A stretch of 64,000 bases of DNA from an uncultured Planctomycetia bacterium (GCA_964565425.1 CAZMEZ010000002.1:13953-77952); one strand, 5' to 3'; numbered from the stretch's first letter, positions 1-59,897 are shown. The notes: a model not told the origin generated them from the sequence alone. Numbers and translations are program-made.

Positions 1-3000
1 AAACTACAGCTCGCCAGGCCGCCGGAAGAGATGAAGCAGGCGATCGAGGATGGCCTCGAGTTCATACATAATCATATCAACGAGAGATCGAAAGAAGAAG
101 TGCTTAGAAGGGCAAAAGAGAGGGAACGGGTTGAGCGGAGAGGTAACGAAATAGTGATGCCCGAAGCTTTTGAAGCGGAGGTGCAGAGGCTTACAGCCGA
201 TTCGATGGAGGTGCTTGTCGGGCCGATCGTGCGGAATCTCAAGGCGGAAGCGGACTACGCCGCCAAGATGAAGGACGTGGGAAAAGATACCGGAGTGGTC
301 CCGGGACCGGAAGCCCCGGACACCGGATTGGCCGGCGTGGACGGGATGATGAAGGCATCGGAGTTGATCGCTCACCTCAGGCATATCAAGACACTCAAGG
401 ATGAAGGGAAAATAACCCCCGCCGGGATCAAGATAGAGACAATGAAGGCGGAGTCCGTTATCGCGGAGCACGGCCTGGGCGAAGAGAGCCTGAAGGGTTT
501 CGAAGACCATGGCTTGAAGAGATCGCTTTGGGGCGTTTTACAGGAACTTTTGTCCGAGTTCAAGGGCGAAGGGGTTCCGGCTGAGGCTGCCGCTCCGGCA
601 ATAGTTCCGGCGAAGGAAGAAGGCAAACTCGGCATACTTACCGAAGCTTTTAAGGAAGCGGACCGGGAGCCCGAAGGCGCGGAGGCCGAAGGGAAAAAAG
701 TCGAGTTCGAGATAGTAAGCGCGAGAGGAACCGGCGCGGAAGAAACGCCGGAAGCTGCCGAAGAGACCCCGGCCGAAGAAACGCCGGAAGCTGCCGAAGA
801 GACCCCGGCGGAAGAAGTCCCGGAAGAGGCCGAAGGGGCCCCCGAAGAAGCCCCCGCACCCGTAGGATCGCTTTCTCCCCAAACGAAGAGATTCATGGAT
901 ATTCTCGATATAGACGATTCGCTCGATATATACGCTGTTATAGCCGGTGAATGCGAAGAGGCGGTAAAGTCGGGCAAGAACCCGGCTTACGATGTGGACA
1001 TGACCAGATGCCGGGAAGCGGCCCTGAAGGTCAAGAAAGAATCCGAAATGATAAGCATGAGCGTCAGTTCCTTTGCCGCGGAGATCCGGGTGCTGGAGAC
1101 GTCGAAGTACAAGGGCCTCAGGAAGGCCATCGGCGAGAAGATAAAAATAGCGCTCGGCCGGATAAATAAGAGATCGAGAGAAGAAGTGTCGGAAAAGCTG
1201 AACGCGAGACTTGAAAAAATGAAAACGGAGGATGAGCTCCCCTCCGATCTGGCGGGTCTTATCGAAGTGCTAATAACCATGCTCAACGATTCGGCCGGGA
1301 TCCTTGCCCGGCCGATAATAGCGGCGATCAGGGGAGAAGTGCCGGCCGTGGAAACCCCGGCCCAGAAAGTGTTCGGACTTTTGATTACCGCCCAGCAGGA
1401 TATCGAAGCCGGTAATTTCGCGCGCGCCCGGCAGAAGGCGCAGGAAGCGGGGAACATCGACCCCTCCAACAAAAGCGCGAAGGATCTCCTGAAACGCGTT
1501 GATGAAGCCGAGGCGGCCATTGCCGCCGAAGCCGCTGCCGCCGCGCAACCCGAAGCCGGAGAAGGGCCGGAAGCGGAGGAGGCGGAAGACGCTGAAGCGG
1601 CGCGTGCCGAGAAGTTGACCGCCCGGGAGATCATGAGAAAAACCGCGGAACTTATCATCAGGCTTGAACATATACAGCGGACCGCGCCTATTAAGAGGGA
1701 AGATGTCGCTGAAGTGGAAAGAGAGATAGAAGCGTCATGTATCAGCGCTGAGGCCCTCAAGAACGCGCGCGACCATACCGGCAAACCCCTGTGGGAAAAG
1801 CTGCAGGAAGCGCTTGCCGGGGTCAAGGCCCTGATGGAAAGGGAAAAGGCGGCTCCGGGAACGGAATCGATCATTCCCGTTATCAGGATCAAGAACACCA
1901 AGATACGCATGATGGTCGAAAGGGAAATGCTGAGCATGCAGGGATGGCTCATAGACTGGCGCAAGCAGATACAGGACGCCGAGGGCGTGCCCGACGTTGA
2001 AAGGCTCGAAAAGATAATCGCCGTCAAGAAAAAGGAACTCGATTTCAGGGCGAAGGAAATAGAGGCCAAAAAGAAGGGAATGGAAAAGGAGCTCGATGAG
2101 GCTCCACAGCCGGAAAAAGACGAGATAAACAGGGTCCTGTACGTCCTTTTCACGGAAGCCGTCGACGGCGACAGTGAAAAAGGCATACAGGGCGTCAGAC
2201 AGATAGTGGCCGGTAAGGGGGCCGGGATAATCGGCGATTACCTGCAGGATTGGGGTACGTTCGTGCAGGGGTCCGACGATTTCCTGAAGTTCAGCCTCGA
2301 GGAAGTGGAGGGTTACATAAGCGCCAGGCAAAAGGAGCTGAAAAGCCTGATGGCGAGATACGGTATCCCCGCCGCGCTGCCGGAACAAAAAGCGGAACTC
2401 GAGAACATGTTGAGCCTTCTGGCGGTTCAGGCCAGGGTAAGGGCTTCCCAGAAAAAAAGGCCGGAGCTCGAGGATACCCAGATCCTTATCAACCTGGACG
2501 CGCTGAGAGAAAAAGAGACCCAGGAGCTCAGCAGGAAAAGCTGGGTGAAGATACAGGCGGTCTCGCCCATACATCACGCGGAAACGCAGGCGCTTATCAG
2601 TTTGGCGAATAAAGGCGCTTCGATGAACGATATAGCCGATAAAGCGTTCGGCGTCATAGAGACGGCCATCAGGGATACGCAACAGAACGATCCTTACAGG
2701 CTCAAGCACAAATTCAGCAACCTGGTCGAAAAATCCTACGAGTCCGGCCTGCAGCTGAACATGGTGGGCCCCATGGAGGTCGCCGTGGCCAAGATATTGC
2801 CTACCATGGATGGCCAGGAAAAAGTGGAAACAGCGGAAGAAGCGCATAACCTCGCGCAGGAAACGCTCGACCAGATAAAAGCGGTTTACGACCAAAAGCC
2901 CGATCTTACCATGGACGATAGCGGCAGAAAACTCAGGGCGGAAGTGCTGTACATGGCGGAAAGCCTGCTTTCCAAGGCCATAGAAGCGAAGTTCCATCCG

Positions 3001-6000
3001 TTCCACAGGCTTTATGATTCGCAGAAAAAGGTCGTTAAAAAGGCCATAATAAACGAAACGACGGACAGGAAAGGCCGGACTAAGAGCAGGATAGGGCTAT
3101 TGCCCACCTCGGCCGGTAAGACCAAGGCCCTGTACACCGGCGCTTTCATCATGGCGATCCACGCGCTCAGCAACAGGGGTAAATCGGCCAGGGAGGGCAT
3201 ACTCATAACATCGACCGAAGAATCCAAGGCCAGGGAAGATGCCGAAGAGGCCGCCCAGGTCCTTTCCAAGCTCGGCGTGCAAGTGGGATTCATAGGCAGT
3301 ACTCCCGAGGGACAGCCCCAGGGATACCTGTACAGCGCCGATATAGACGATTTCAAGAAGGTCCCCGACAGCAGGGTATATGACGAAGCCGTGGTGGTTT
3401 ACGGTACCCTGGACAAGTTCGTCCACCGTTCGCAGCACGAGCAGGAATCCATAGTCCCGGCGGACCGGAAATTCATGCACCGCAGCTGGAGGCTGCGCCT
3501 TGACGAAGCGGATGTTCCGCTTATCTATGATGTCGCCAATCCGTTCATAATATCAAGCACACAGCACGATCCCTTCGTGATCCGTCTGGTGGACGGGATA
3601 GTCCGTGAATTCATACTTACAAAACCCGACAGTTATTCGGAGAACGTCAGGAAGAAAGAGGTGGAGCTGACCCCGCTCGGTATAGAGATACTCAAGGATA
3701 GGCTCATCATCGATGCCAACTTGAGCAATGACGAGATCAAAAGGGGCCTCGCCAGGTTCATGCGCATGGCGGAACTCGCCATAACCGCGCATATATACTA
3801 CGTTATCGATAAGAACTACACGGACGTGACCGTCCAGGGCAGGCGCGAAATAGTGTTCCTGGACGAAGGCACGAAAAGGCCGGTTTTCGGCAGGCTGCCT
3901 TACGATATGCAGGCCGCCATAGAGGCGAAAGAGGGCCTTTCGGTCCGGCCGGAGGAGAATTCGGAACTTATCCTGCAGATAGACAGCGTAATCCGCGAGA
4001 CCATAAAGGAGGACCCGTATCTTTACGAGCAGAAACCCGACGAAAGGTTCGTCAGGCTGAACAGGAAGGGCATAGAAGCGCTTAAAAAAGCCCTTACCGG
4101 CAAAGGCAGGAACGCCGAGGAAGTGGCCCGCGATATTTCGACCACCGAGGAACTTGCCGAAATGTCCCTCACGGCGCATCTTTACTACAAGCCCGGCGAG
4201 GATTACAGCATAATGAGAGTGGGCGATCACAGGGAAATAGTCCTTCTTGACGAGGGGACGGGCAAACCCATGTACGGAAGAAGGCTTTCCTACGGTCTTC
4301 ACGCGGCCATAGAAGCCAAGCATCACGCGGAAGGCATAAACGTGAAGCCGGAAGGGGTAATAACCTCGTGGACGACGCTCACGGGTTTCCTCAGACAGCC
4401 TTTTATCGTGTCGTTCGGCGGCGTGACCGCGACATGCGACGAGGACGCCATGCGGCAGCTTCACGGCGTCAAGACCGTCAACGTCCTGGAGGAATTGCGT
4501 GAGGAATTGGCGATAAGGGAATACAAGAAGGCTTACACGGAACTCGAAGTCGAGGAAAAGGCCAGGGTCGATAAACTGGTCCACGAGAGCCACAGGAAGG
4601 AATTGCCGCCCCGCATATATGAGACCCAGACCGAGAAGCTGAAAGCCGTATTCTGGGTAACGCGCAGGCAGAAAGAAAAGAACCCCGCAAGGCCGATATT
4701 GATCAAAGTGGCCAGTGATCTCGAGGCCGGCGAGATGGCGACCCTCCTGAAAAGGGCTCTCGGCGACGAGGCGAAGATCAATCTCATGACGGCGGCTACC
4801 TATGAGGATATAGACCAGATCAAACACGAGGCGGGCCAGGAAGGGTGCATAACCATAGTCACCAACCTCGGCGGCAGGGGTATAGACATAAAACTCAATG
4901 AGATGACCGATATGGTCGGCGGGCTTCTCGGTATATCGACGTATTTCGACGAACTTGCCGCTTCCGATATACAGTTCAGGGGACGCGTGGGAAGGAACAG
5001 GCATCCCGGCACGTGGATGGGATTCTGGTCCCTGGAGGACAGGGCCTTCAGGAAATACGCCGAAGCCCATCCCGAAGGCATACGCATATTAAGGGACATG
5101 ATCGCGCAAGTCAAGGCCGACGATACCAGGCCGGATAAATATATAGGCTGCGAAGAAAAAGTCGAAAGGGTAATAGACGAAATAAGGCTGAGCATCAGGA
5201 AAAGGCATATCTACGCGAGCCGACAGCACCAGGAGCTCTCGGAATACATAGAACGGCGCAGGGACGGTTTCTTCGCGCAGAGGGAAAACCTGATAGAGAA
5301 CCTGGTCACTGTCGTCGCGGCGATCAGCGAGGAAAAGAGAGATCTGAACGAAATAGACAGGCAGATACTCGATCACGGCGACGAATTCATGCAGCTTTTC
5401 GGAAAGGATATAAGGACCGAGGGCTGGACGCCGGATAACATAATCGGAAAGATCGAGGATATGTGCGATAACGATCCCGACATGGCCCAGAACCTGGTGG
5501 AACTGGCCAAGGTGGACGAAATAGCGGACCTCCTCGTTAAGGTGATCGGCCGGAGGGAGGTCCATCTCGAGAAGATAAAAGAGCTCGAGCGCGACAGGCA
5601 GAACATGATGATGCCCATAGTCAGGGCGAACGTATCCTGGCAAAGGTTCCTCGAGAGGGCCAATAACATACAGAAGGGCCTCGACCGTTTTCTCAGGCAT
5701 TACGGCTGGAGGCAATCGCTTCTCCAGATAGATCCCGTGGTCAACAGGGAACGCATGATAAAAGCGGCTTATGAATCGGAATTCGGCAGGAAAAAAATAA
5801 CCCCGGAAAAGATCCCCATGATCGTTCTCAGGGGTATCCTGACCGGTCTCGTTGTCGTTTCCATATTCATATATGCTCCGGCAGTGCTTGCCGGATTTTT
5901 CGGGATCCTGGGGATACCCTCGATACTGGGTTATGCGGGTTTGGCCGCGCTGGCAGCGCTTATAACCTTTAAACCCAGGGCCGGCGCGGCCGTCCTGGCC

Positions 6001-9000
6001 ATGACGGGTTTCTGGACGGCGTTCAAGTATATCACCGGTCTGATGAAAATATCCACCCTCTGGGGATCGATACCGAAGGACGCGTTCTCGGTCCTCTCCA
6101 CCGATATTAACCTTATTTTTGCCGTCGGGCTTATCGGTATAACAATGCTTGCAGCGGTGATCATACTGCAAAGGGGATTTCTCAGGCAGATGCAGACGGT
6201 GGACAAGTCCATAAGGGGTTTTGCCCGCGTTCGCTACGGCATAGAAATAGAAGGGGTAAATCCCGCGGCGGCTGTAGTGAAATACCTGGCGCAGCAACTG
6301 CTGGGTATTATAAATTACCTGGCGCCGTTCCTCGCGGGACTCTGCTTTGTAGTGGTGGCGGCGATACCCCCGTTCCTGGGAAGCAGCATAATTACGCTGC
6401 CCGCGGCGCTGGGGATAGGGACCGCGCTTGCCGCGACAGGGCTCGTTTCCACCGTGATCACGATCTTCGCCAACCGCAAGGAGATAAAGGGATTCGGCAT
6501 TATACGCCCGAGCCTGGGAAAAAGGTATATGAATACCGTAGTGGACGGCGTGCTCGCCGTGTCGGCCGGAGCGTTCTTCCTTTTCATGGCCCAGTGCGCG
6601 GGTTTGACGTACATGATCGCGGGTCTTCTCTTGTCCCTGTTGGCCATCCAGCTGGCCCGCAGTGTCGTGACGAGGAACATGGGCACGCATACCATACACA
6701 TGAGGACCTATCGGCTCGGAGCTCTTTCGAGCATTCCCGCCGCCGCGCTGGTCCTGGGATTGACGCGGATCCTGGGCATGACATTGGTGCCTTTCTGGAC
6801 AGTCTTTATACTCGCGTCCGTGCCTTTCATGATAACCGGTATCGGTTATGTCGCCGCGCAGTGGTATTCGGCCAAAAGGCTCTCCGAAATAAGCTCGAAA
6901 GTGACCGACATATCCAGGACAAGAAGTTTTATAGGCATAATCCTGGAGCAGAACCTCTTTAACGTAAGGCAATGGGCGCCTGCCGCGGGAACCGTGACGG
7001 GGCTTGTGGTCTTCATGGCGGGTCTTGTCGCCAAGAGCCCGGTCCTCAGCACGCTGTCAATATCCGCAGGGTTCGTGGCGGCGGTATTCCTGACAGCGGT
7101 CATCGCCGTGAAACTGCATAAGCTTTTTTCCGGGATAAAGTTGAGAAGAAAAGGGGATATTGCGGTCTCCGAAACCCGCTTGAAGGACATAAGGCTGGCC
7201 AGGAACGTGGTTTCAAAAGAAGAGCTGGGCAATATAATCAAAGCCGTTGAGGCGTTCAAGGCGGAGCGGCCCGGGACGGATAATCCGTATTCACTGGCCG
7301 TTAGTAAATTAAGGAAACGGGTTGTCGGCGGGTCGGTGCTGGAAAAGATACTCCACCAGATAACGATCCATGGCCCCCCGCCGGGCGGAAAATGGAACGA
7401 AAAAGAGCTCGAAAGCAGCATAAGACAGATACTGTTCAGGGAAACCGTCGATCTTTCCGGAGAACCCGTCAAAAAGGGAAGCGAAGACGGCGAGATCGCC
7501 GTAAAAGCCTTCAAATCGCTCTTCAAGGAATTCGGCCTTGTAAAGACCCCCATCGACAGGATGCTGGATACGGTAAGCAAACCGGAAAACTGGATGAAGG
7601 CCCTGGGAGAGTCTTTCCGTGTAGCCATAGGCCTTCCGCTTCTTGTGGACGGCGCCCAGAAAGCTTACACGAACAGGATGGAGGAAAAAAGACTCCATGA
7701 CGCCAGCGTACGGGCCCAAAAACATACCGAGGAAACGCGCCAGAGCCACATAACTTTTCTGCAGAGCAAGGAAGAGGATATAACACGGCTTCTTGATATC
7801 ATGAGGCAGGAGGCGCTTCAAGGCGATAGAAAAGCCTTCGATCCGCACATGGAGCTTTTCAAAAGGCTCATAACGGAATACGGCACTTATAAAACCGGGT
7901 ATTTCGTTCCCGCGGAAACGGAAATTTACGCGCGCAAGCGGGATATCTTCCTGAAAAAAGCCGAGGAAGCGGAGGCGTTGCTGGAGAAAGTGCTGGCGGA
8001 AAGAAAGGCGATGGAGAGATCGCAGCGCGCCGAGACCCTGAGGGGACTTACCGCGAAGATCGATGAGGCGCTTGAAAACATGAAAAAGGCGGCCGAAAAG
8101 GGAGACAGGGACGCCTTCGGCAGGGCCAAGATCGAGATGGACATCAAGCTCAAGCACCTTGAATCCTTCAAGGAAGATGCCGTCGAAGAAGCCGAGAAAA
8201 GGGCGATAGACGAACTTATCGCCAGGTACAGGGAACTTGCCGCCAAGATGGGAGAAAGGCTCAAGGCCCAGATGGAGGCTCGCGACTCACAGCTCGCCAG
8301 GTTGAGAGACCTTTTGGCCGACCTTAATACCGCCGCGATGTCAGGGCACGAGAACATTTTCAACGAGAAGCTGAATGAATTCGAAAAGGCGCTCCGCGAT
8401 TCCGACCTGGTCGCCGAAATAGAGAAGAAGAAATTCAAGAAGAGCGCCGAGAAGGCGAAGGATACGCTTGCCAGGAGGATCGAGGAACTCAGCAAGGAGA
8501 AGGACAAGAGAAGGGCCGCCCAGATCTCGGAGATAGAAACGCTGCTTGGTAAAATGGAAGGATCCGCGAAAAAAGCGGACGCGGCGGGATTCGCCAGGCT
8601 CAAGGAAGCTTTCGAGGGAGCGATCGAGACGGCGGACCTGGTCAGCGACGCGGACAAAACCGGCTTCGGGACGAGAGCCGGCCGGGCCGGGATCGTCCTC
8701 ATGGAGACCATGAAGAAGATGTTCGAATATCACGACAAGATAAGCAAATTTGTCATGGCCGCCCCGTCATACGCTTCGCCGGAAAAAGCGGCGAGCGCGA
8801 AAGAAGCCCGGGAAAATTTCAAAAAAGCGATGGAAGCGCTTAAAGCCGAAGCCCCGGAGGTTTACAGCCGGGAGCACGCGGATTCGGATCTCCGCCTGGC
8901 GGAGATACTTTTCGAAAAGGCCGTGAGCGAAAGGGTGGACTCGAGCGACGTAACGAAACTCCGGGTCCTGCTCAGGCGCGCCATGACCAGCGACCGCGAG

Positions 9001-51137: not shown

Positions 51138-51152
51138 TAAAAAGTAAGTTTT
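51138..51152 (+). promoter_or_regulatory. Conserved 15-nt element TAAAAAGTAAGTTTT, copy 2, 30 nt upstream of TATAAT at 51,183
   Basis: Identical to 33,210-33,224. Confidence 0.5.
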
Positions 51153-51224
51153 ACGCAGGGCACGTGGAGTGTGTCTTGTGTATATAATAATAAGAACAAA
51201 TTTGGAGAGAGAAGGAGAAAAATC

Positions 51225-54200
51225 ATGAATAAGCCCAAAAGATCCCCAATCTTTAAGGCAGTAAGCCTTTTTCTGGTGCTGGCGTTCTCATTATACAATG
51301 TGAGCTTCGCCGTCACGCAGGACAATATCGGCAAACCGGATACGGTCGATGTGACCGGGCCTCTTTCGGTAGAGGACATCGGCATAGCGATCGATTGCGG
51401 GACGATAAAGTCCAGGTTCAACGGTGACGCGGACAAGGTCATCGTTCACATCCAGGACGCGCACTGTAACTACGAAGCGCAGTCCAACATAAACAGGATG
51501 CTGGACCAGATCACTAAGGAATGCGGGATAGGCATCATATCGGTCGAGGGCGCGGAGGGGATCGTCGACACGACATGGTTCAGGGCATTTCCGGACGCCG
51601 AGATACGCAAGGAAGTGGCGACTTACTTCATGAAAAAAGGCGAGATAACGGGCGCCGAATTTTTCTCCATAACCTCCGATTTCCGTGGAACCATCTTCGG
51701 GGCGGAGACCAGGGACTACTACGTGAGGAACCTCAGGGCCTTCACGGACGTCTACCCCTACAAGGAGACCATCGAGAACTACTTCACCAACGTGCGGACG
51801 GTAGCCAACCGGCTGAAATCCGTGGTATATCCCGCTCAGCTCAGGGAACTGGACCAGAAGATAAGGGCTTTCGACGATAAGGATATAGAGCTCAGCGACT
51901 ACGCGGAATACCTGAACAAGATGACGCGGAAATACCGCGTGGACCTCAAGGATTGCGGGAACTTCGATAAGCTCACGCAAACGCTGGAATACGAGAACAA
52001 GATAGACTTCGATACCGTCGACCAGGAAAGGAGCGAATACATAGACGTTATCAGCAAGAAGCTGTCCAAGGAGGACATGACGGAACTGGTGACGCAGAGT
52101 ATCAGGTTCAAGAAGGGTCACATAAAAGCCGTTGACTTTTATTCCTATCTCAGGGACCTCGCGAAGGATAACAGCGTCGATATGGTCCATGAATACCCGA
52201 ACCTCTTCTATTACTATATTTACACCAAGCTTTACGACGGGATCGACAACGAGGGACTTTTCAGGGAGATAGACCTTGCGGAGATCCGCTTAAAGGACAA
52301 ACTCTTCAAGGACGAGACGCAGAGGAAACTGGATAAGTATTCCCGCATGGTCGACATGTTCGTCGACCTCACTAACATAGAGCTTACGAACGAGGATTAC
52401 GACACTTTCAAGGGTTATTCCAAGGAATTCTCTCTCGAGGACACGCTGGAGTTCTTCAAGGGGCTGGTCGACAAGTATAACCTGAACTACGCTATCGACG
52501 GACTTCCTGTCCAGATCGGCGAGAACATCCCCAAAATGGTGGATTTTTACGAGATCGCCATAAAGAGGGACAATGCCCTGATAGACAACACGCTGGATCA
52601 GATGAAGAAAGAGAAACAGGACAGGTGCGTCCTTATAGCCGGCGGTTTTCACACCAGGGGCATAAAGGACATACTCGAGAAGAAAGGCGTTTCTTACGTG
52701 GTCGTCACGCCGAAGATAACGAAGAACGTGGACACCCCGTATATCAAGGTGTTGACCAACCAGAGGACGTCGCTCGAGGACATAATCACCGAAAGCGCGG
52801 TCGTCCCCGGTATAGGGATAACCGCTTCGCGCGAGGAGATAGTCCGGCCGAAAGGCGACATGCTGAGCCCGCTCGCGAGGGTGGCGTACACGATACCCAT
52901 GTATCTCAACAAGCCCGGGGACCTGAAGGAACTTTCCGACGCGGTGGGCGCGGTTCAGGGGAGATCCCTCGAGGACGCCGCGGTGGAGTCTTACAAGGAA
53001 ATGATAGCCGCTCTCGTAAGGGGCTGGCTCATGAAGGTAAGAGAGAACGCCGCCCCGGAGGTATGGGCGACGGCCATAGAGAACTGGCATCTCCTTCTGG
53101 GCGCGTATCTCAAGAAATACGAGGAAGAAGCCGCGAAACAGGGCGTCCAGGTCATAGAAGGGCTCCGCGTGCCGGCGGCGATGCTTACGGCGGAACAGGC
53201 GGCGGCGGTAAGCCAGGAGTTCAGGGCTATATTCGAGGAGGAGGTCAAGAGAAGCAAGACCCCCGGCGCCGAAGCCATAAGGCTGGACGACAAGAACGAT
53301 CTTTATGAATCGCTTACGCCCGAGGAGGCCGCGGCGCTCGATGAGGTAATAGCGGGGATAATGTCGAAGATAGATACTACCCGCGAAAGCCGTTTGGCCC
53401 ACACGACGGAGATAATGGTCGAAAACGTCGACGCAAATACGGGCAAGACCGTTAAAAAAGCCATGGAAGTCTGGAAACTCCCGGGCTTCAGGGAAGCCAT
53501 AGAGAAATATAATGCCGCGCACGAAGCGCGGATACCGCTTGATGTGCGAGTGCACCCGGGCACCGGCAGGGGGACCTGGACGCGCATGTACATCGACGAG
53601 AGGGATTTCGCGGCGCTGGACGAAACGCAGGCGCAACGCTTGGCAAATCACGAATATTATCATATACTAAACCCTGATAAGAGCGAGAAGGACGCGATCG
53701 ATGTCCAAAAGGACGACCTCATGGACGTGCGTCTCGCTTTCATAGAAGCGGAAAAAGAAAGACTGAGACTCAAGGCCGAAGAGGAGAAGAGAGTGAAGGA
53801 AGCGCTTCTCACCAATTCGAAAGCTATGGCGGAAGCCGCCGACAAGGGCGTAGGTCCCGACATCGTCATGATCGTAAGCTCCACCGACGAGCAGGCCGAT
53901 TTCTGGCAGAAACGCCTTACCGGCAAGGATGCCGTTCACGGCTCGGGCGAGATCGTGAAGACCGGCGCCGTCGTTCTTTCCGTGCCGGAATCCAACTGGA
54001 AGGGCGGGGCCGGGAACGGTCTGGGGACGCTGAACGGTTTTGTCCAGGCCGCGAGAAAAGCGCGCGACCTGAAACTTATAGATGTCCCGGACGACGCCCC
54101 GATAGAGGAACTTATAAGGGTTTTCATGTTTTATATCAGGGGCAAGAGCTCCTTCATGTTCCACACGGCGGGTAAAGGCACGCGCACCGCGCCGCTTCCC

Positions 54201-57200
54201 GGGGCGGAAGTTAACTCAAAACCCAACATCAAACTTCCCAAGATGGTCGAGGTGGAAGGGAAACGGCAACCGGTCACCATCCTTGAATCGGTCCTAATGG
54301 AGACGAGCATATACGCTCCTTCAAGGAAGAACCGCCTGAGCGTTTTCTGGGGCGACCAGGTGATAGTAAACGAGGAGAACATAGATTTCGGGAAAAGGCA
54401 TCACGTGGAGATATTCGGGCAGAAGGTGCCGCTGGACAGGGAGATCGAGGCGTACGGTGTCCTTATCCCCGGCGAAGAAGGCGATTGCAAACAGAGGGAG
54501 AAACTCGCGCTTGACGACGTGAAGAAGGTGCTTCCCGCCGGCAGCGATGAAGTATACAAGAGCATAGGTTCTTTCACCGTTTCACTCGGTTTCCTGAACG
54601 CTTTGATGAGCATGAAAGAGCACATGGAAGCGCTCAAGAAAGCCGAAGGCAGCCTCAATACCGACCCGGACTGGTGGCAGCCGCTTACCTCTGCGCGTAA
54701 CGAATATATCGAGATGCAGGGCAAGAAAGGCGTCGACGCGAAAAAGGCCGGGGCCCAGTGGGACAGGATGAACAAGTTCTGGGAAGATTTCGAAGGCAGC
54801 GGCGAATACCTGGGAGAGGCCCTGGACCGCAAGATAGGGTTCAACGACGTAGGCCCCAATTCCTACTGGTGGGATTACGGCCAGAATAAATTCTACCTCA
54901 GGAACATGCAGATACTGACCGAGGATTCCATGGAAGGCGAGGCCGCCAGGAACTTCTTCGGCGTCGAGGAAGGCAAGTGGGTGGACGCCTCTTCCGATAC
55001 CGGTGAAGCCGTCATCGAGAACTCGATAGTCCAGAACTCCGCCATAAAGAAGGGGAGCCTCAAGAACTGCGTCGTTATAGACTGCACGCTGGACGAGGTC
55101 TACGCGGAGAACGCCGTTATCATAGGTAGTACTATATTAAAACTTAACGCGGACGGGGCTTTGTGCTACAATGTCGTGGACCATGACGTAAGCCTCCGCG
55201 AAGGTCAGCTTCTTGCGAACATATTCCATCCCGAGCTCGGTCGCTTCGCCATGCGCACCGACACGACCAGGGACGGCCAGACCGATTGGAACGGTAAGGT
55301 ATACGTGTATGATAACCAGTACACCTATCCCCAGGTTTCCGATCTGATGAAGGGCGTCAAGATGGAGGATGTCGAGCAGGCCAGGCAAAACGCGGTAGCG
55401 AATCTCAGGACGACCGACCGCATGAGCGGCGCGGAACTCGCGCAGAGATTAAGCGATGCCAGGGGCATCAGCATCGAGTCGGCGCGCGAGCTTGTGGCCC
55501 GCAGGATGCTTGTATTCGGGGACATCCAGTATTTTTACGACACCACTTATATGGATACATTCGGCGTATCAAAAGACAAGGCAGAACAGGAAGTCGACGA
55601 GGTCGGAATGGCCGGGAAGGGCGTGACGCAGGTTGAGTATAACACTTCGCTTAACGCGGACAACATGGCCGGCCTGGTTGCCAGGCTGGAATCCGCCGGC
55701 GTCCTTAATGCCGTGCGGAAAAAGCAGCTTATCGCGGCTTTGACCTACCGGAAGGTGGAAGACGTGACCGACGAAGACCTCCAGAAATACGTTCGCGCGT
55801 CGGATCTCACCGATCTTAATTTCCTTTTTGACGTTCTTAAGGAGACCGACGCCCTGTACGGGATAGATCTCGCTGAGCTCGGTATAGCCGAAAAGACTCA
55901 AATGGTGGACGTGAGCTTGCCGGAACAAGCCAGGGAAGAAGTCCTGAAGAAGTCTCTTAAAGAAGGCCTCAGGTTCGGTACAAGCGGCCTCAGAGATTTC
56001 GTAGAGAACATGCCCGACGTCGAAGTTTATATCAACACGCGCGGTTTTGTTAAATTCCTCAAGGAAAGAGGCGAGATCGACGGGAAGAACAACGTGATCG
56101 GCCTTGCCGGCGACCTCAGGGCGAGTACGCCCAGGATAATAGCGGCCGTCGCGAAGGCCATAGAGGACGAGGGTTGCAGGGTGGATTTCCAGGGGCTTGT
56201 CCCCAGCCCGACGATCGCGTACTATGCGATGCAGAAAGACATGCCCAGCATCATGGTCACCGGCAGCCACATACCCGAGGTCATGAACGGCATAAAGTTC
56301 ACCAGGAAAAGCGGTGAGGTGCTTAAGAGCGACGAGGACCCGATAAACGAACATGTTAAGGAAGCAAGGGCCGAAGAGTACGCCAAAAACTGGGATAAAT
56401 CCCTTTTCAACGGGCGCGGCATGTTCAACGTCAAACGTCCGGCTCCGGGAGCGAAGGCGGACGCGGAAACGGTTTACGTGCAAAGATATCTCGATGTTTT
56501 TCCGAAAGACGCCCTTAAGGGCAAGAAGGTGGTTTTCTACCAGCACAAGGCTGTAGGAAGAGATATAACCGCGGGAGTGTTCGCCGCGCTCGGCGCGACG
56601 GTCATTATAGAAGGAAGAAGCGAAAAGTTCGTCCCGATAGATACGGAAAAGGTCCCGGATTCCACGAGGGCCCTTTTCAGGGAATGGGCGAAAAAGCACG
56701 ATCCCGATCTTATCATATTCACCGACGGCGATTCGGACAGGCCGGGGCTGGTGGACGAGACCGGTGAATACCTTACCGGCGACTGTCTCGGCGCTCTTGT
56801 ATCGATGTACCTGAAGCCGCAGGCCGTGGGCCTTCCGGTGAGCGCCAATGATGCGGTGGTCGAAGCCCTTAAGGCGTCGGGGATAAAGGTTACTCCTACA
56901 AGGATAGGTTCACCGTATGTTATCGCGGCGATGAACGGTTATCTTGCCGCCGATCCGGACATGAAGGTCGCGGGCTGGGAATCGAACGGAGGGTATCTCC
57001 TGGGGAGCGACTGGACTATAAACGGAAAAACGCTCAAGGCGTTACCGACGAGAGACGCCATCCTGCCGCTGCTGGTAACGGCTATCTTCGCCAAGGAGCA
57101 GGGCGTGAAGATGTCGGAGCTCATAGCGTCCAGATTGCCGGCAAGATACGTCGTTTCGGACGCGGTCAACAACAAGATGGAAGGATGCGAGGCCTATACT

Positions 57201-59897
57201 CCCGATATGGGAAAGAGAATAGTCAAGGCCTATACGCCCGAAGGGACGAACGTGGTCCAGGTCGAGTACAGGATGGGGCCGGACGAGCGCACGCCGCTCT
57301 ATTATGTGTTGCGCGAAGACGGGACCGAAGGCGTAGCGTCACCGGATATGGCCGTAAAACTTGAGAATATAAGACAGCAGCTCGCGGCATATTTTCCGCC
57401 CGACAGAGGGCTTGGAGAGATAACCTACATAAATTTCATGGACGGTATAAAGATGCGTTTCGCGAGCGAAGACGGCATACATATAAGGCCGTCGGGCAAC
57501 GAGCCGATCATGAGGTTCTATGTCCAGTCTCCCAGACCGGAACGCGCCAAGAGTATAGTGGACGCCAAACTCGATTATATGCGTCCCTTGATCAGAGATT
57601 TCTCCGCTCCGGCGACGCCGGGCATGCAGGCGGTAAGGGTGGATACCGAGATGGGCAAGGCCATAGCCGCGCTCGATCAGGCGATAAAGGAAGGGAAACC
57701 CGTCCATTTCGTCCCGTCTTTCAGGACCGGAAAGGACGGCTACACGTGGGGGCAGGACGTGAGGGACAATTTCATCCTTGGGCTCATGGGCGCCAAGACC
57801 GCCGAAGAGAGGATAGCGCTTGCCGAGAAATACGGTATACCCGCGAACGAGGTCATCGGCGAAAGATGGATAACCTCGGGGCTCGTCGAGGCCGAAGGCA
57901 AACAACTGCCTAACCGGATCCTGGCCCTCTGGCCGGAACAGGTGCCGGGAAGCAAGATAACGGCTAAGGCCCTTACGTCGGGCAGGCCGCTGTCGCTCCA
58001 GTACCACAGGTTTCCAGAGATGATCGTCCCGCTCGAGGACGGCTATGCTTACCTGGGACTTAACAAGGACGTCACGCCCCAGCAGTTCATGGATAATCTC
58101 CGAAAAGGGGACGTCAGCATGTTCAACAGGGTGGAGCTCAGGAAGGGCCGGCCCGTTATCGTCCCGCCTTACATGATACACGCCTACGGCATCGTGAGGG
58201 TATACGAGGTAAAAGCCGTGACGGCTGCCGAAGACAAGGCCGGGACCATATCTTTTTACGACAGGTTGCGCCTTGATCCCGCGCAGCAGGCGGAAGTTGC
58301 TAAGATAGTCGAGGATAATACACCGGATGAAGCTGCCCGGATATTGGTAGCAAAAGGCATCGTACGGCCCAAAAAGGACGTACTTACGCTGCCTGCCGAG
58401 ACCACCCAGGCGATAGCGGCCGAACTCGAGAGGGCCGGGGCGCTTAACAGGTCCGATCTTTCGGTGGCGTATTTCACGCCGGTTGTCGTGACGGAACAGC
58501 CCGGCGTTAAATACGAAATAATGGGCCAGGCGCCGGGTTTTGTTACCGGAAGATATACCCTTGATGAGGCGAAGACCATGCGGGTGGCCCCGGCGATACA
58601 GGGCAAACAGCATTCCGTGTTCGTTACCGAGGGCACGGTAAGGATACTTAACGATAAGGGAGAAGAGATCGACGTCCTCACGCAGGGCGAAGAAAGGATG
58701 TTCCCTACCAGCGTGGGTACATACAGCATAACGGCCGTTGAGGGTTCGGCGGCGGTCTATACGCAGTATACCCCGGAGACCCCGACAAGGGCCACGCCGA
58801 TCCAGATGGAGACCGGCGAACGCACGATAGCAGATCTGGCGGAAAGCGTGCCTTCTTACGTGGCCACGGGCGTGGTAACGCCCGAGGATGCCATGACGGA
58901 CGTGGTAGAGGTGAATACCGCCGTCAGGTTCGACGTCCTGCCCGTCCAGGACGGGCGCGATTTCGTCGTGGATGTCGTAGCCGGGAGCATATCACTCATA
59001 GCGGACGGAGAAAGGCTTGCCGTTTACGAAAAAGGCGATACGCTGCTGGTAAGCGAGGATAATATCATCGACAATAAGGGGCGGATAATCGACCGTCTCG
59101 AGCTCGGTAAATACGAACTGGTAAAAGAGGGGACGGTGCCGGCAACGGTCGAGGTGAGATACCCCAAGACCGAGGCGGAAAAGATAGTATATACCGTCTA
59201 TGACATGCTCAAGAAACACATCGACGAGATAAAAGCCGGGCAGGTCGATCTTATACTGCCGGACGAGATGTTCGTCCCCGGCGGAAAGAACAGCGTAGGG
59301 TCCGCGCTCTGGGAACAGGAACAGCTTAGAAGGTACGTAAGCGACAAGATAAGGATAAGCACTTACAGCTCGCATATGGGCCTCAAGGAAGCCGCCAAGA
59401 AGAGCCTGAATAAAGGCGCGGTAGGCATTCTCGTGGCCACGGAGTCCAACATCAAGGATGCCGACAGGGATGATCCCGAGCTCAGGGACTTCCTGCAGGG
59501 CAGGAAAGGGACCCTGAGGACCCTTGCCATACCGGACCTGGACGATCTCGGGGAAAAAGGGTGGTATTTCAACCGCGAAGTCGAAGGTACGGCACTGCTC
59601 CTCGCGAGCGTTACGCCGGAGCAGATAAAGGTCGAAGGCGAGGACAACGCCGCCGATGACCTGCAGCGCCTCATGTCGCAGCTTGTGGGTAAGCCGGTCC
59701 CGAGGCAGTATCTTTATTACATGCTGTCGTACGACGAGATAGGCGACATGTTGACCAAGCTTCCCGCGGAACTCCAGGAAGATCCGTACGGCTGGCTGCG
59801 TTTTGTGGTGCAGAATCTGCTCCTCAAGATGCCGATCAAGCCGTTCGACGCCACAGAACAGCTCCACCAGAGAAGGAAGATCATGTGGTCGGTATAA
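51225..59897 (+). CDS. Giant multidomain membrane-anchored protein, 2,891 aa, with fused sugar-nucleotide biosynthesis domains
   Basis: The ATG at 51,225 is preceded by a strong SD, gagaaggagaaaaatc, with AAGGAG 8 nt upstream. The ORF track's GTG start at 51,171 has no SD. N-terminal anchor IFKAVSLFLVLAFSLYNVSFA. Terminator lies downstream. Confidence 0.9.
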   Translation: MNKPKRSPIFKAVSLFLVLAFSLYNVSFAVTQDNIGKPDTVDVTGPLSVEDIGIAIDCGTIKSRFNGDADKVIVHIQDAHCNYEAQSNINRMLDQITKECGIGIISVEGAEGIVDTTWFRAFPDAEIRKEVATYFMKKGEITGAEFFSITSDFRGTIFGAETRDYYVRNLRAFTDVYPYKETIENYFTNVRTVANRLKSVVYPAQLRELDQKIRAFDDKDIELSDYAEYLNKMTRKYRVDLKDCGNFDKLTQTLEYENKIDFDTVDQERSEYIDVISKKLSKEDMTELVTQSIRFKKGHIKAVDFYSYLRDLAKDNSVDMVHEYPNLFYYYIYTKLYDGIDNEGLFREIDLAEIRLKDKLFKDETQRKLDKYSRMVDMFVDLTNIELTNEDYDTFKGYSKEFSLEDTLEFFKGLVDKYNLNYAIDGLPVQIGENIPKMVDFYEIAIKRDNALIDNTLDQMKKEKQDRCVLIAGGFHTRGIKDILEKKGVSYVVVTPKITKNVDTPYIKVLTNQRTSLEDIITESAVVPGIGITASREEIVRPKGDMLSPLARVAYTIPMYLNKPGDLKELSDAVGAVQGRSLEDAAVESYKEMIAALVRGWLMKVRENAAPEVWATAIENWHLLLGAYLKKYEEEAAKQGVQVIEGLRVPAAMLTAEQAAAVSQEFRAIFEEEVKRSKTPGAEAIRLDDKNDLYESLTPEEAAALDEVIAGIMSKIDTTRESRLAHTTEIMVENVDANTGKTVKKAMEVWKLPGFREAIEKYNAAHEARIPLDVRVHPGTGRGTWTRMYIDERDFAALDETQAQRLANHEYYHILNPDKSEKDAIDVQKDDLMDVRLAFIEAEKERLRLKAEEEKRVKEALLTNSKAMAEAADKGVGPDIVMIVSSTDEQADFWQKRLTGKDAVHGSGEIVKTGAVVLSVPESNWKGGAGNGLGTLNGFVQAARKARDLKLIDVPDDAPIEELIRVFMFYIRGKSSFMFHTAGKGTRTAPLPGAEVNSKPNIKLPKMVEVEGKRQPVTILESVLMETSIYAPSRKNRLSVFWGDQVIVNEENIDFGKRHHVEIFGQKVPLDREIEAYGVLIPGEEGDCKQREKLALDDVKKVLPAGSDEVYKSIGSFTVSLGFLNALMSMKEHMEALKKAEGSLNTDPDWWQPLTSARNEYIEMQGKKGVDAKKAGAQWDRMNKFWEDFEGSGEYLGEALDRKIGFNDVGPNSYWWDYGQNKFYLRNMQILTEDSMEGEAARNFFGVEEGKWVDASSDTGEAVIENSIVQNSAIKKGSLKNCVVIDCTLDEVYAENAVIIGSTILKLNADGALCYNVVDHDVSLREGQLLANIFHPELGRFAMRTDTTRDGQTDWNGKVYVYDNQYTYPQVSDLMKGVKMEDVEQARQNAVANLRTTDRMSGAELAQRLSDARGISIESARELVARRMLVFGDIQYFYDTTYMDTFGVSKDKAEQEVDEVGMAGKGVTQVEYNTSLNADNMAGLVARLESAGVLNAVRKKQLIAALTYRKVEDVTDEDLQKYVRASDLTDLNFLFDVLKETDALYGIDLAELGIAEKTQMVDVSLPEQAREEVLKKSLKEGLRFGTSGLRDFVENMPDVEVYINTRGFVKFLKERGEIDGKNNVIGLAGDLRASTPRIIAAVAKAIEDEGCRVDFQGLVPSPTIAYYAMQKDMPSIMVTGSHIPEVMNGIKFTRKSGEVLKSDEDPINEHVKEARAEEYAKNWDKSLFNGRGMFNVKRPAPGAKADAETVYVQRYLDVFPKDALKGKKVVFYQHKAVGRDITAGVFAALGATVIIEGRSEKFVPIDTEKVPDSTRALFREWAKKHDPDLIIFTDGDSDRPGLVDETGEYLTGDCLGALVSMYLKPQAVGLPVSANDAVVEALKASGIKVTPTRIGSPYVIAAMNGYLAADPDMKVAGWESNGGYLLGSDWTINGKTLKALPTRDAILPLLVTAIFAKEQGVKMSELIASRLPARYVVSDAVNNKMEGCEAYTPDMGKRIVKAYTPEGTNVVQVEYRMGPDERTPLYYVLREDGTEGVASPDMAVKLENIRQQLAAYFPPDRGLGEITYINFMDGIKMRFASEDGIHIRPSGNEPIMRFYVQSPRPERAKSIVDAKLDYMRPLIRDFSAPATPGMQAVRVDTEMGKAIAALDQAIKEGKPVHFVPSFRTGKDGYTWGQDVRDNFILGLMGAKTAEERIALAEKYGIPANEVIGERWITSGLVEAEGKQLPNRILALWPEQVPGSKITAKALTSGRPLSLQYHRFPEMIVPLEDGYAYLGLNKDVTPQQFMDNLRKGDVSMFNRVELRKGRPVIVPPYMIHAYGIVRVYEVKAVTAAEDKAGTISFYDRLRLDPAQQAEVAKIVEDNTPDEAARILVAKGIVRPKKDVLTLPAETTQAIAAELERAGALNRSDLSVAYFTPVVVTEQPGVKYEIMGQAPGFVTGRYTLDEAKTMRVAPAIQGKQHSVFVTEGTVRILNDKGEEIDVLTQGEERMFPTSVGTYSITAVEGSAAVYTQYTPETPTRATPIQMETGERTIADLAESVPSYVATGVVTPEDAMTDVVEVNTAVRFDVLPVQDGRDFVVDVVAGSISLIADGERLAVYEKGDTLLVSEDNIIDNKGRIIDRLELGKYELVKEGTVPATVEVRYPKTEAEKIVYTVYDMLKKHIDEIKAGQVDLILPDEMFVPGGKNSVGSALWEQEQLRRYVSDKIRISTYSSHMGLKEAAKKSLNKGAVGILVATESNIKDADRDDPELRDFLQGRKGTLRTLAIPDLDDLGEKGWYFNREVEGTALLLASVTPEQIKVEGEDNAADDLQRLMSQLVGKPVPRQYLYYMLSYDEIGDMLTKLPAELQEDPYGWLRFVVQNLLLKMPIKPFDATEQLHQRRKIMWSV
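51430..52770 (+). other. Shared N-terminal domain, paralogue of ORF2 33,520-34,900
   Basis: See alignment in feature 33,520-34,900. Confidence 0.4.
53850..55200 (+). other. NDP-sugar pyrophosphorylase (nucleotidyltransferase) domain followed by a left-handed beta-helix hexapeptide repeat
   Basis: HTAGKGTRTAPLPGAE at about 54,160-54,210, compared with the GGxGTRLxPLT signature. LSVFWGDQVIV. Hexapeptide-like VIENSIVQNSAIKKGSLKNCVVIDCTLDEVYAENAVIIGSTILKLNADGALCYNVV at 55,005-55,180. Confidence 0.5.
55960..57560 (+). other. Alpha-D-phosphohexomutase (phosphoglucomutase/phosphomannomutase) domain, complete
   Basis: LRFGTSGLRDF compared with FGTDGIRG. Active-site loop MVTGSHIPEVMNGIKF compared with TASHNPxxDNGIK. 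Metal-binding loop IFTDGDSDRPGLVDETGEYLTGD compared with FDGDGDR. Sugar-phosphate loop GIHIRPSGNEPIMRFYVQS compared with RPSGTEP. Confidence 0.7.
57900..58760 (+). other. Type-I phosphomannose-isomerase-like cupin domain(s)
   Basis: GRPLSLQYHRFPEM matches the type-I PMI zinc-site motif LS[IV]Q.H (Gln/His ligands). Downstream MIHAYG. A second beta-rich cupin-like stretch VAPAIQGKQHSVFVTEGTVRILNDKGEEIDVLTQGEERMFP. Confidence 0.4.

Follow-up and report, generated by a model that had tools for sequence, protein, structure and literature searches.

Tandem giant and very long genes of Candidatus Omnitrophota type share terminal modules and carry SecA-like, PPDK-like and phosphohexomutase domains

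Three long genes, O1, O2 and O3, lie consecutively and in the same orientation in the window, i.e., the whole 64,000-nt stretch of DNA analysed here (Table 1), and they are real, separate and conserved. The frame of O1 is stop-free from base 1 to 32976 (first ATG at position 31), with 0 stops against 712 and 281 in the other forward frames, and GC1/GC2/GC3 values of about 0.58/0.38/0.70 recur in each 3-kb block of O1, O2 and O3; this uniform codon-position signal and the stop-free frame together indicate that the ORFs are not products of chance. Between the genes, every frame is interrupted by stops, and signals of the promoter, RBS and hairpin kind are found; the gene boundaries and order are kept by relatives in many independent assemblies, which argues against an artefact or one broken gene. 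The preliminary description had likewise recognized three consecutive co-oriented ORFs rather than one mis-assembled frame, and its view is borne out by the gene ends: O2 and O3 each open with a signal/anchor helix and the N-terminal module described below, with which homologues elsewhere also start, and O1 and O2 close with a C-terminal module that in relatives lies at the stop codon. Its lengths (at least 10,981, 5,892 and 2,891 aa) hold for O2, become at least 10,991 aa for O1 with its frame open from base 1, and included the stop codon for O3 (2,890 aa). A GTG at 51171 would give an O3 of 2,908 aa; the ATG at 51225, yielding 2,890 aa, is preceded by an AAGGAG RBS. The expectation that O1 continues upstream was borne out by a collinear orthologue fragment (P0120; 44% identity across 4,650 aa), which reaches ~240–300 aa farther N-terminally without hitting a start; a further relative (P0122) has ~1,100 aa more upstream of the cut edge, and no relatives of O1 residues 1–700 were found in metagenomes. 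Relatives match O2 at residues 3584–5892 (L034), 4468–5501 (L007) and 5254–5892 (L004, 71%). Neither internal repeats nor extra module copies were detected in O1–O3 by blastp or HMM, ~85% of their residues have no detectable family, and no Rfam families or tRNAs were found within the window.

Table 1. Positions of the genes, modules and signals in the window
Feature	Position	Strand	Residues	Remarks
O1, giant gene	1..32976	+	>=10,991 aa	Open at base 1; 5' end cut by window edge
O1 SecA-like ATPase	3088..5700	+	~1030-1900	NBD1, two PPXD copies, NBD2, part of helical scaffold
O1 hydrophobic cluster	5809..7095	+	1937-2365	~11 helices (Kyte-Doolittle), directly after SecA-like domain
O1 second TM cluster	24937..26760	+	8313-8920	~12 helices (Kyte-Doolittle)
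O1 further TM segments	29299..31770	+	9767-9845 and 10377-10590	Kyte-Doolittle
O1 C-terminal module	31810..32973	+	10604-10991	Common to O2
Intrinsic-terminator-like hairpin and U-run, 3' of O1	33116..33158	+		RNA fold -33 kcal/mol (folded 66-nt segment)
15-nt motif TAAAAAGTAAGTTTT, copy 1	33210..33224	+		Upstream of O2
Sigma-70-like promoter of O2	33231..33259	+		TTGACG-17-TATAAT, 11/12 matches
O2 gene	33324..51002	+	5,892 aa	ORF call; relatives in other genomes
O2 signal-anchor and N-terminal TIKI/TraB-like module	33324..34916	+	1-531
O2 membrane region, two paralogous repeats	41664..44579	+	2781-3163, 3616-3752	EE.., F...H, H...N motifs
O2 PPDK-like ATP-grasp and swivelling phospho-His domain	46857..48332	+	4512-5003	His in GGKLSHAG
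O2 C-terminal module	49902..50999	+	5527-5892	blastp, alignment A2, HMM
Sigma-70-like promoter of O3	51088..51116	+		TTGACA-17-TATACT, 11/12 matches
15-nt motif TAAAAAGTAAGTTTT, copy 2	51138..51152	+		O3 leader
O3 gene	51225..59897	+	2,890 aa	Omnitrophota orthologue family ~2,800-3,500 aa
O3 signal peptide and TIKI/TraB/EreA/ChaN-like module	51225..52799	+	1-525
O3 conserved domain X	53805..55415	+	861-1397	Alignment A3, 18 invariant residues
O3 phosphohexomutase (PGM/PMM), domains I-IV	55962..57554	+	1580-2110
O3 conserved C-terminal region	58476..59894	+	2418-2890	tblastn to many orthologues
Terminator-like hairpin, 3' of O3	59930..59964	+		-20 kcal/mol; followed by UUUUCCUUUAU
Promoter-like site 3' of O3	60049..60077	+
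Two ABC sugar-type permeases	60132..61040, 61069..61953	+		Pfam BPD_transp_1 9e-14, 7e-20
Lipoprotein GH113 with F5/8-type-C domain	62003..63601	+		GH113 1e-47; F5_F8_type_C 3e-21; lipobox TISGC

Each gene had been credited with its own promoter and terminator; promoter-like sites were located before O2 and O3, and terminator-like hairpins after O1 and O3 only, with no convincing terminator 3' of O2. Both hairpins escaped a consensus scanner because their loops exceed 8 nt. The window has just two occurrences of the 15-nt motif (chance expectation 0.07), each in the leader of a giant gene, and an exact match to its 13-nt core was absent from 84 loci. The O3 promoter site and leader are kept in the closest relative (L004).

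The O1 ATPase domain is divergent, motif-complete and SecA-like. As in SecA and SecA2, Walker A, DEAD, PPXD and NBD2 arginine-finger motifs are present, with GKT (1039), DEAD (1168), GRGIDI and GRVGRN intact, and the alignment to SecA structures extends via NBD2 into the scaffold helix. Matches were obtained to Pfam SecA_PP_bind (1e-18), P-loop_SecA (2e-17) and SecA_DEAD (4e-6, beginning at profile position 98) and to PDB SecA chains (down to 1e-25); the NCBIfam SecA models score at most 210 bits, their cut-off being 862. No full-length SecA match with a complete NBD1-PPXD-NBD2-HSD-HWD set was found above the equivalog cut-off, and SecA_SW had no match in O1. Unlike SecA, the domain is embedded 1,000+ residues into a giant protein, carries a duplicated PPXD and runs into a membrane block of its own with ~11 helices. 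A SecY-like identity was considered for this block, which had neither a Pfam match nor a homologue by word search. In total, 29 hydrophobic segments were counted in O1.

O2 contains no SecA and ~12 TM helices. Its PPDK-like unit, detected by Pfam (PPDK_N and PEP-utilizers), aligns to residues 14–510 of PDB PPDK 1kbl (2e-50) and scores 238 bits in NCBIfam against a cut-off of 843. It resembles PPDK in having the ATP-grasp nucleotide-binding domain and the swivelling phospho-His domain, in which the catalytic His is kept, and differs in lacking the PEP/pyruvate-binding TIM-barrel (no match to PEP-utilizers_C in O2), so that the three-domain arrangement of PPDK is incomplete. Lacking the barrel, it presumably resembles ATP-grasp/His-domain phosphotransferases having other acceptor domains. 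The two membrane repeats are the best-conserved pieces of O2 in relatives (40–49% identity); they have no Pfam match and may resemble CPBP/Abi. Methyltransf_11 reached sub-threshold scores in O2 (E=0.002–0.003; 19 bits vs 21.2).

O3 encodes a four-domain alpha-D-phosphohexomutase with the phosphoserine, metal, sugar and phosphate loops (TGSHIP, DGDSDR, GWESNGG and RPSGNEP, all intact), matching Pfam PGM_PMM_I–III at 8e-17, 1e-12 and 5e-9, domain IV weakly, and the phosphomannomutase 4hjh in the PDB at 1e-75. Domain X, upstream of it, is suspected to comprise an NDP-sugar pyrophosphorylase and a beta-helix. Its profile against the PDB and per-member Pfam scans gave no match, hhalign placed WWDYGQN on aWlDtGt of E. 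coli RfbA at a non-significant E=0.16 and gave nothing significant for E. coli ManC, and a single-sequence AF2 model had a pLDDT of 35. The domain X consensus recalls fucokinase-N / NDP-sugar pyrophosphorylase with a left-handed beta-helix. The O3 C-terminal region has no Pfam match and is not matched by the A2 HMM of the O1/O2 C-terminal module, and the alignment over residues 530–840 shows no conservation.

The translocase motor and PPDK-like phosphotransferase noted earlier could be placed in O1 (Pfam, PDB, NCBIfam) and O2 (Pfam, PDB 1kbl, NCBIfam), respectively, and a sugar-phosphate enzyme, PGM/PMM, in O3 (Pfam, PDB 4hjh). Of the sugar-nucleotide enzymes named there, a true nucleotidyltransferase is only suspected in O3 (aa 861–1397). 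Three other statements found no support: of the three proteins said to be membrane-anchored, O3 has a single N-terminal signal-peptide-like helix and no later TM segment; for the reported OMF-like elements there was no TolC/OEP at Pfam E<=0.01 in all tiles or NCBIfam E<=0.05 in the O1/O2 tiles; and for the PG-lytic motif no SLT, lysozyme or amidase was detected (Pfam, all tiles; NCBIfam, O1/O2 tiles), the searches for both returning only coiled-coil-type noise (EmrA, E=0.02; SMC).

The genes are related through their ends, shared end-modules enclosing middles that vary. The ~520-aa N-terminal modules of O2 and O3 share 30% identity (blastp, 1e-74; A1 HMM for O2, 6e-158), and 224 tblastn-confirmed loci carry the module in GTDB species representatives. 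From its predicted structure (pLDDT 91), which shows the TIKI alpha/beta fold, the module can confidently be modelled as an exported TIKI/TraB/EreA/ChaN-like hydrolase fold with conserved catalytic residues. In O3, D78, H80 and H476 are at least 90% conserved among 100 sequences and E108 is invariant, as is R448. Like the TIKI/TraB superfamily, it has a D-x-H motif, a Glu 28 residues on and, within a GGFH loop, another His; the 2His/2Glu constellation, with Asp in place of the first Glu, is assigned by motif position and a non-significant hhalign comparison with E. coli YbaP, without residue-level superposition. The H80-to-E108 spacing of 28 equals that of Bcr135 (H85/E113) and RRSP (H3902/E3930) (PMC6254334). 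In contrast to the superfamily, the first acidic residue is Asp, the core is split by a ~300-residue all-helical insertion (aa 163–462), and the module heads multi-thousand-residue proteins. None of Pfam TraB, ChaN and Erythro_esteras reached threshold (ChaN E=0.12 in homologue P0016; DUF5694 E=0.045), and Foldseek against the PDB was not significant. The module also occurs as a free-standing protein of ~520 aa; at one locus (L001) this lies directly 3' of a 28,676-aa gene and adjoins FBP-aldolase+PFK+GAPDH and full-PPDK fusion proteins. At the other end, the ~380-aa C-terminal modules of O1 and O2 share 26% identity (blastp, 1e-16; HMM for O1, E=6e-122), and the 19 relatives in alignment A2 each end with ...Y.YLP....IDLE.E...Y....E.L.KA at the stop. 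For this module no Pfam relative was found, the 19-sequence profile had no match in the PDB, and a single database homologue was found.

All named N-module hits belong to Candidatus Omnitrophota/Omnitrophica (up to 71% identity), and the best GTDB loci reach 80%, 76% (Makaraimicrobium thalassicum, phylum confirmed) and 73% (Tantalella remota). Judged by these homologues, which bear out the Omnitrophota-type origin proposed in the preliminary description, the window stems from a Candidatus Omnitrophota chromosome whose nearest named relatives are Gorgyraia-type genera, e.g., Makaraimicrobium. Among 40 loci, O3-like ORFs of ~1,400–3,900 aa stand head-to-tail with an upstream ORF, which runs out of the 10-kb flank in 21 of them. 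The recurring order is an O2-type or O1-type C-module end, the O3-like gene, an ABC permease and GH113, and the downstream permease/GH113 synteny is kept in six loci (L006, L015, L020, L028, L030 and L038). No pilZ-sized ORF fits the 234-nt gap after O3, and the window does not extend upstream of O1.

The locus type, its domain content and its downstream neighbourhood have already been described (PMC10066038; bioRxiv 10.1101/2023.11.21.568195; bioRxiv 10.64898/2026.06.07.730766). Seymour 2023 defined giant ORFs as those of >20 kb in an Omnitrophota genome (PMC10066038); O1 (at least 32,976 nt) exceeds this length, O2 (17.7 kb) and O3 (8.7 kb) are shorter, and the host is assigned by homologues, i.e., N-module loci of 73–80% identity. 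Omnitrophota giant ORFs are also credited to Kizina 2022, as cited in PMC10066038, and have been reported in Gorgyraia. The Archaeovorin-type class of West-Roberts 2023 comprises proteins of >30,000 aa encoded by genes of >90 kb, with divergent SecA_DEAD/PPXD by TM regions, PPDK and PGM/PMM (the last two among its 'less common/frequent' domains), and with binding-protein-dependent transporters and glycoside hydrolases downstream (bioRxiv 10.1101/2023.11.21.568195). O2 and O3 fall below that size, and O1, at least 10,991 aa, is cut by the window edge. The cluster shares with this class the phylum, mostly unannotatable sequence, many TM helices, divergent SecA_DEAD and PPXD by TM regions, the PPDK and PGM/PMM domains, and downstream transporters with a glycoside hydrolase; the combination of TM helices and SecA_DEAD/PPXD is confined to O1, O2 having no SecA and O3 one TM. 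In contrast to Archaeovorins, no HEAT, GT, NUDIX, methyltransferase, GGDEF, C39 or S8 was found in O1–O3 (a Pfam scan of every tile at E<=0.01 gave no glycosyltransferase, methyltransferase, glycosyl hydrolase, peptidase, NUDIX or HEAT domain), no pilZ was found downstream, and the load is split across three tandem genes sharing end-modules. PGM/PMM and SecA_DEAD are also recurrent Pfams of Omnitrophota proteins of at least 10 kAA (bioRxiv 10.64898/2026.06.07.730766). The 'Multi-enzyme metabolic cluster' class of Nielsen & Lui 2026 likewise has a non-repetitive architecture, PGM/PMM and SecA_DEAD, SP+TM or TM topology and Gorgyraeia-type hosts, but here only O1 passes the 10-kAA bar, each protein has one family group, and that paper gives no description of the shared N- and C-modules: the words 'Tiki' and 'TraB' do not occur in its text, and 'ChaN' matches a single word start, an author's name among the references (bioRxiv 10.64898/2026.06.07.730766). 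By its domain content, the cluster is an enzyme-bearing, Archaeovorin-like flavour of the Omnitrophota 'giant / very long protein' kind, to which the present analysis adds the shared N-module, the shared C-module, the intact SecA-like, PPDK-like and PGM motifs, and the ~3,000-aa orthologue family of O3.

The best explanation of the whole is an Omnitrophota giant-gene cluster encoding a membrane-linked enzyme platform (probability about 0.7). That the locus is an Omnitrophota giant/very long protein cluster is highly probable; the topology and function of the platform are a tentative best guess, to which we give slightly less than an even chance. O1–O3 would be transcribed separately, and the Sec pathway would bring the proteins to the inner membrane with the TIKI-like head outside. 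O1 and O2 could be held in the membrane by their TM clusters, leaving the ATP- and phospho-sugar-dependent modules facing the cytoplasm; on a crude hydropathy count only, the 12-helix parity of O2 would put its PPDK-like unit and C-module inside. Such an envelope-bound platform may link sugar salvage (GH113, the ABC importer, the hexose-phosphate mutase and possibly NDP-sugar formation), a connection drawn from the gene neighbourhood, to building or remodelling of a cell coat, which ATP-driven translocation or phosphotransfer would also feed and which might be used in host contact. Beyond the signal peptide, O3 lacks TM segments, so export is predicted for its PGM domain, at odds with a role in the cytoplasm. 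A more specific cassette plan can be imagined, not described so far, in which an exported, catalytically competent TIKI/TraB-like head, acting as a self- or coat-processing protease/esterase, is joined to a tail, either the C-module (O1/O2 type) or a sugar-activating X-plus-PGM block (O3 type). With the SecA-like motor and the membrane block fused to it, the three genes would give a self-contained, membrane-tethered machine that turns imported (manno-)oligosaccharide into activated sugars and threads or modifies the coat for host contact; this is speculative, and we consider it unlikely in its entirety.

The predicted full export of O3 speaks for an extracellular coat for predation or attachment, in which the polypeptides would lie mostly outside, bind hosts and digest walls, the sugar-phosphate enzymes would pre-process sugars and the SecA-like domain would export its own protein. 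O2 and O3 both begin with Sec-type signal or anchor helices, many members of the superfamily of the TIKI-like head are extracytoplasmic proteins or secreted toxin domains, the genes 3' of O3 encode an exported GH113 lipoprotein and ABC importers, and the literature proposes extracellular host binding and wall digestion for 'Archaeovorins' and for the giant protein of V. archaeovorus. However, the three giants gave no match to adhesin, dockerin, lectin, HEAT, CBM or lytic-enzyme families (Pfam, all tiles; NCBIfam, O1/O2 tiles), the O2 TM parity puts the PPDK-like unit inside, and a motif-intact SecA ATPase, an ATP-grasp/phospho-His unit and a phosphohexomutase, which need ATP or phospho-sugars, would be odd outside the cell; we regard this as a rather improbable alternative. 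A signal peptide ahead of ATP-dependent enzymes would be sensible if these worked in a host cytoplasm, as in a MARTX-like delivery of multiple effectors into or onto a host, where the TIKI-like or intramembrane protease-like modules would cut the protein and the enzymes set free would redirect the sugar and energy metabolism of the host. The TIKI fold is common to the RRSP (MARTX) and HopBA1 (T3SS) effectors, the head keeps its catalytic residues, and the two conserved O2 membrane repeats have protease-like EE/H/HxxxN motifs; yet this idea, wholly inference, is very unlikely given that no repeats-in-toxin, CPD, T1SS or T3SS signals or known toxin family were found (Pfam; NCBIfam, O1/O2), that the many TM helices of O1 and O2 are typical of resident membrane proteins, and that the N-module also stands free. 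An assembly-broken gene, a chimeric assembly or composition-driven stop-free stretches, for which strong plus-strand purine and GC skew, 17 antisense ORFs of at least 300 aa and an O3 homologue in pieces in a low-coverage long-read relative (L003) might speak, can practically be dismissed in view of the frame, codon-position and intergenic evidence above, the plus-frame protein conservation with the same starts and stops in many independent assemblies, and the lack of any family for five of the longest antisense ORFs (515–1,085 aa).

In Omnitrophota, giant proteins take up much of genomes that are very small, and they are linked with a lifestyle of host dependence or predation. The locus leaves that overall picture unchanged and gives it tractable handles, namely a ~520-aa head that is predicted to keep a hydrolase active site and a ~3,000-aa O3 family small enough for expression. 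The cellular side on which the intact-motif enzyme modules lie would discriminate between an extracellular coat and a membrane-tethered platform.

The feature comprising three consecutive giant genes on the forward strand (O1, O2 and O3; see the table) is real. The O1 reading frame contains no stop codon, versus 712 and 281 in the other two forward frames, and GC content at codon positions 1/2/3 stays at about 0.58/0.38/0.70 in each 3-kb block of all three genes. They are separated by 347 nt (O1–O2) and 222 nt (O2–O3), and both gaps contain Shine–Dalgarno motifs. RNA folding predicted a strong hairpin followed by a U-run 3′ of O1 and another 3′ of O3, both skipped by the terminator scanner owing to their loop length, and no convincing terminator was found 3′ of O2. 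The preliminary description had assigned each gene its own promoter and terminator; this stands for the promoter-like sites of O2 and O3 and the hairpins of O1 and O3, but not for an O2 terminator. The closest relative (locus L004) keeps the promoter-like site of O3 and a leader of ~100 nt, and the starts and stops of orthologues coincide across other assemblies. Together with the intergenic signals, this indicates, as had been proposed, three separate genes rather than one broken frame. The 15-mer TAAAAAGTAAGTTTT occurs as two exact copies in the 64 kb (0.07 expected by chance), upstream of O2 and O3. L004 has a diverged copy (AAAAAGTTGGTTTT) in its own O3-like leader, which is conserved; judged from sequence, the 15-mer may serve both genes as a regulatory or leader element.

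Features of the window discussed in the text (nucleotide positions unless marked aa)
Feature	Position	Strand	Remarks
O1	31 (first ATG)–32976	+	at least 10,991 aa; frame open from base 1, cut by window edge
Divergent SecA-like ATPase	O1 aa ~1030–1900	+	PPXD duplicated; GKT, DEAD, GRGIDI, GRVGRN intact
Tandem preprotein cross-linking domains	3900–4500 (O1 aa ~1240–1470)		two copies
Antisense ORFs	987–58613	−	17 ORFs, 312–1,085 aa
15-mer	33210–33224; 51138–51152		exact copies
Sigma-70-like site before O2	33231–33259	+	near consensus, 11/12 match
O2	33324–51002	+	5,892 aa
Paralogous O2 membrane repeats	41664–42812, 44169–44579 (aa 2781–3163, 3616–3752)	+	EE.., F...H, H...N motifs
PPDK-like ATP-grasp and phospho-His	O2 aa 4512–5003	+	aligns to PPDK residues 14–510; His conserved
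Sigma-70-like site before O3	51088–51116	+	near consensus, 11/12 match
O3	51171 (GTG) or 51225 (ATG, preceded by AAGGAG)–59897	+	2,908 or 2,890 aa
Domain X	53805–55415 (O3 aa 861–1397)	+	~540 aa, strongly conserved; always just before PGM domain
Phosphohexomutase (PGM/PMM)	O3 aa 1580–2110	+	four loops intact; best solved relative a phosphomannomutase, 1e-75
GH113 protein	62003–63601		predicted lipoprotein
Further gene	~63740, leaves window at 64000		signal peptide

Consistent with coding on one strand, nearly all of 1–64000 shows a positive GC skew (+0.07 to +0.17) and a positive AT skew (mostly +0.1 to +0.36); GC falls to 0.46 only at 60–62 kb, across the permease genes and intergenic region. 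The many antisense ORFs of at least 300 aa within the giant genes are attributed to the codon bias and strong purine skew of the sense strand, and look like by-products of its purine-rich, GC3-rich codons. Five of the longest (515–1,085 aa) matched no family; the largest, at 1,085 aa, has an unusual composition (V 13%, L 13%, K 1.8%).

The three proteins are not internally repetitive; instead, they have end-modules in common. The N-terminal ~520 aa (N-module) is common to O2 and O3 (30% identity, 1e-74), and the C-terminal ~380 aa (C-module) to O1 and O2 (26% identity, 1e-16); in relatives the latter always reaches the stop codon with a conserved tail, Y.YLP....IDLE.E...Y....E.L.KA. In a 100-sequence alignment of the N-module, E108, G109, Y166, E257 and R448 are invariant, and Q77, D78, A79, H80, G473, G474, F475 and H476 nearly so. 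Its AlphaFold2 model is confident (pLDDT 91.3, pTM 0.85), with an N-terminal signal or anchor helix that a short linker joins to an alpha/beta core, itself interrupted by a helical insertion of ~300 residues. D78-x-H80, E108 and H476 mirror the 2His/2Glu site described for the TIKI/TraB/EreA/ChaN superfamily (PMC6254334), and the spacing of exactly 28 residues from the His to E108 recurs in Bcr135 and RRSP. A Foldseek search gave no significant match, the Pfam matches to ChaN and DUF5694 were both sub-threshold, and hhalign against Escherichia coli YbaP aligned the R...GGFH region correctly without significance. Judged from alignment and model, the N-module is probably an active, Sec-exported hydrolase head.

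Tiled Pfam, NCBIfam and PDB-sequence searches left ~85% of the residues without assignment, and the OMF-like and PG-lytic elements suggested earlier found no support. The SecA-like domain of O1 is followed directly by ~11 hydrophobic helices; its two cross-linking domain copies read YYVIDKNY...AIEAKEG and YYKPGEDY...AIEAKHH. The PPDK-like (pyruvate phosphate dikinase) unit of O2 is without the PEP/pyruvate barrel. The membrane repeats are the best-conserved parts of O2 among relatives (F...H as FFMLH/FFFLH, H...N as HSFGN/HLREN, with a common KGVMPAAI tail); they are reminiscent of CPBP/Abi intramembrane proteases, yet had no Pfam match. Domain X of O3, which relatives also carry within a separate X+PGM gene, has a consensus suggestive of an NDP-sugar pyrophosphorylase that ends in hexapeptide repeats; searches and a structure model gave no confirmation of this.

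All named close homologues among the 118 database matches to the first 530 aa of O3 are Candidatus Omnitrophota/Omnitrophica, in agreement with the Omnitrophota-type origin first suggested. Scanning a single genome from each species confirmed 224 N-module copies, the best identities being 80% (JBAROK010000071), 76% (Candidatus Makaraimicrobium thalassicum, a genus assigned to Gorgyraia families by Seymour et al., PMC10066038) and 73% (Candidatus Tantalella remota). Few are free-standing ~520-aa genes; at loci with enough flanking DNA the ORF usually runs 1,400–3,900 aa, and more than 20 species representatives carry O3-like orthologues of ~2,800–3,500 aa. The upstream co-oriented ORF overruns the 10-kb flank in 21 of 40 loci. 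One O1 orthologue fragment fills an entire 15-kb contig, is collinear with O1 (44% identity over 4,650 aa) and reaches ~240–300 aa beyond the window edge without a start, bearing out that O1 continues upstream. In a low-coverage long-read assembly (ENA ctg33741, 2.27x, 7695–16994), the O3 orthologue is called as four or five genes, probably through sequencing errors, which shows how giant genes end up fragmented in databases.

The recurring gene order is C-module end, O3-like gene, often a second X+PGM gene, ABC permease and GH113. The conserved neighbours downstream of O3 are sugar importer permeases, two in number and without an accompanying solute-binding protein gene in the window, and a GH113 protein with lipobox TISGC and an F5/8-type-C (discoidin-type) domain. 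The further gene carries a signal peptide (MKRVVLVLAVLGLVLAGTVAGA...). At the equivalent locus of a 267-kb relative contig (JGI Ga0209340_1000019, 1–21545), long proteins incorporate glycolytic enzymes as fusions: a 28,676-aa gene and a free-standing 514-aa N-module gene are followed by a 1,792-aa FBP aldolase, PFK and GAPDH fusion and a 2,506-aa protein that contains an entire PPDK. This order strengthens the tie to central sugar metabolism.

If the 12 hydrophobic helices of O2 are counted from an N-in start, its N-module would lie outside, whereas its PPDK-like unit and C-module would both lie inside; the SecA-like ATPase would have to be cytoplasmic. On the simplest reading, O1–O3 would form a platform bound to the envelope, with the modules that depend on energy and phospho-sugars on the cytoplasmic side and the heads and loops exposed to the periplasm or surface. 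O3 is the weak link in this reading, as it has only a signal peptide and is predicted to be exported whole; West-Roberts et al. (bioRxiv 10.1101/2023.11.21.568195) raised the same paradox for glycolytic domains. Two rivals are therefore retained: that the proteins form an extracellular coat, which is possible though doubtful, and that they serve effector delivery, which is improbable. The envelope-bound platform would link sugar salvage with coat building or remodelling.

The window agrees with published descriptions of Omnitrophota giant proteins. ORFs of >20 kb occur in most Omnitrophota classes, Gorgyraia included (Seymour et al., PMC10066038). In the account of West-Roberts et al., divergent SecA_DEAD/PPXD domains adjoin TM regions, PPDK and PGM/PMM domains are also present, and genes for binding-protein-dependent transporters lie downstream together with those for glycoside hydrolases. 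Nielsen & Lui (bioRxiv 10.64898/2026.06.07.730766) define a non-repetitive multi-enzyme class and list PGM/PMM and SecA_DEAD as recurrent Pfams in proteins of at least 10 kAA. Strict membership of the Archaeovorin class of West-Roberts et al. is not established, because O2 and O3 fall short of its size and O1 is truncated at the window edge, because Pfam searches of O1–O3 did not recover the GT/HEAT/NUDIX/methyltransferase set typical of it, and because no pilZ gene follows O3 in the window. No mention of the N-module turned up in these two preprints or in the library search. The giant-protein class is intriguing and the present locus would not surprise a specialist; its additions are modest, namely the shared TIKI-like head, and the C-module together with the O3 orthologue family.
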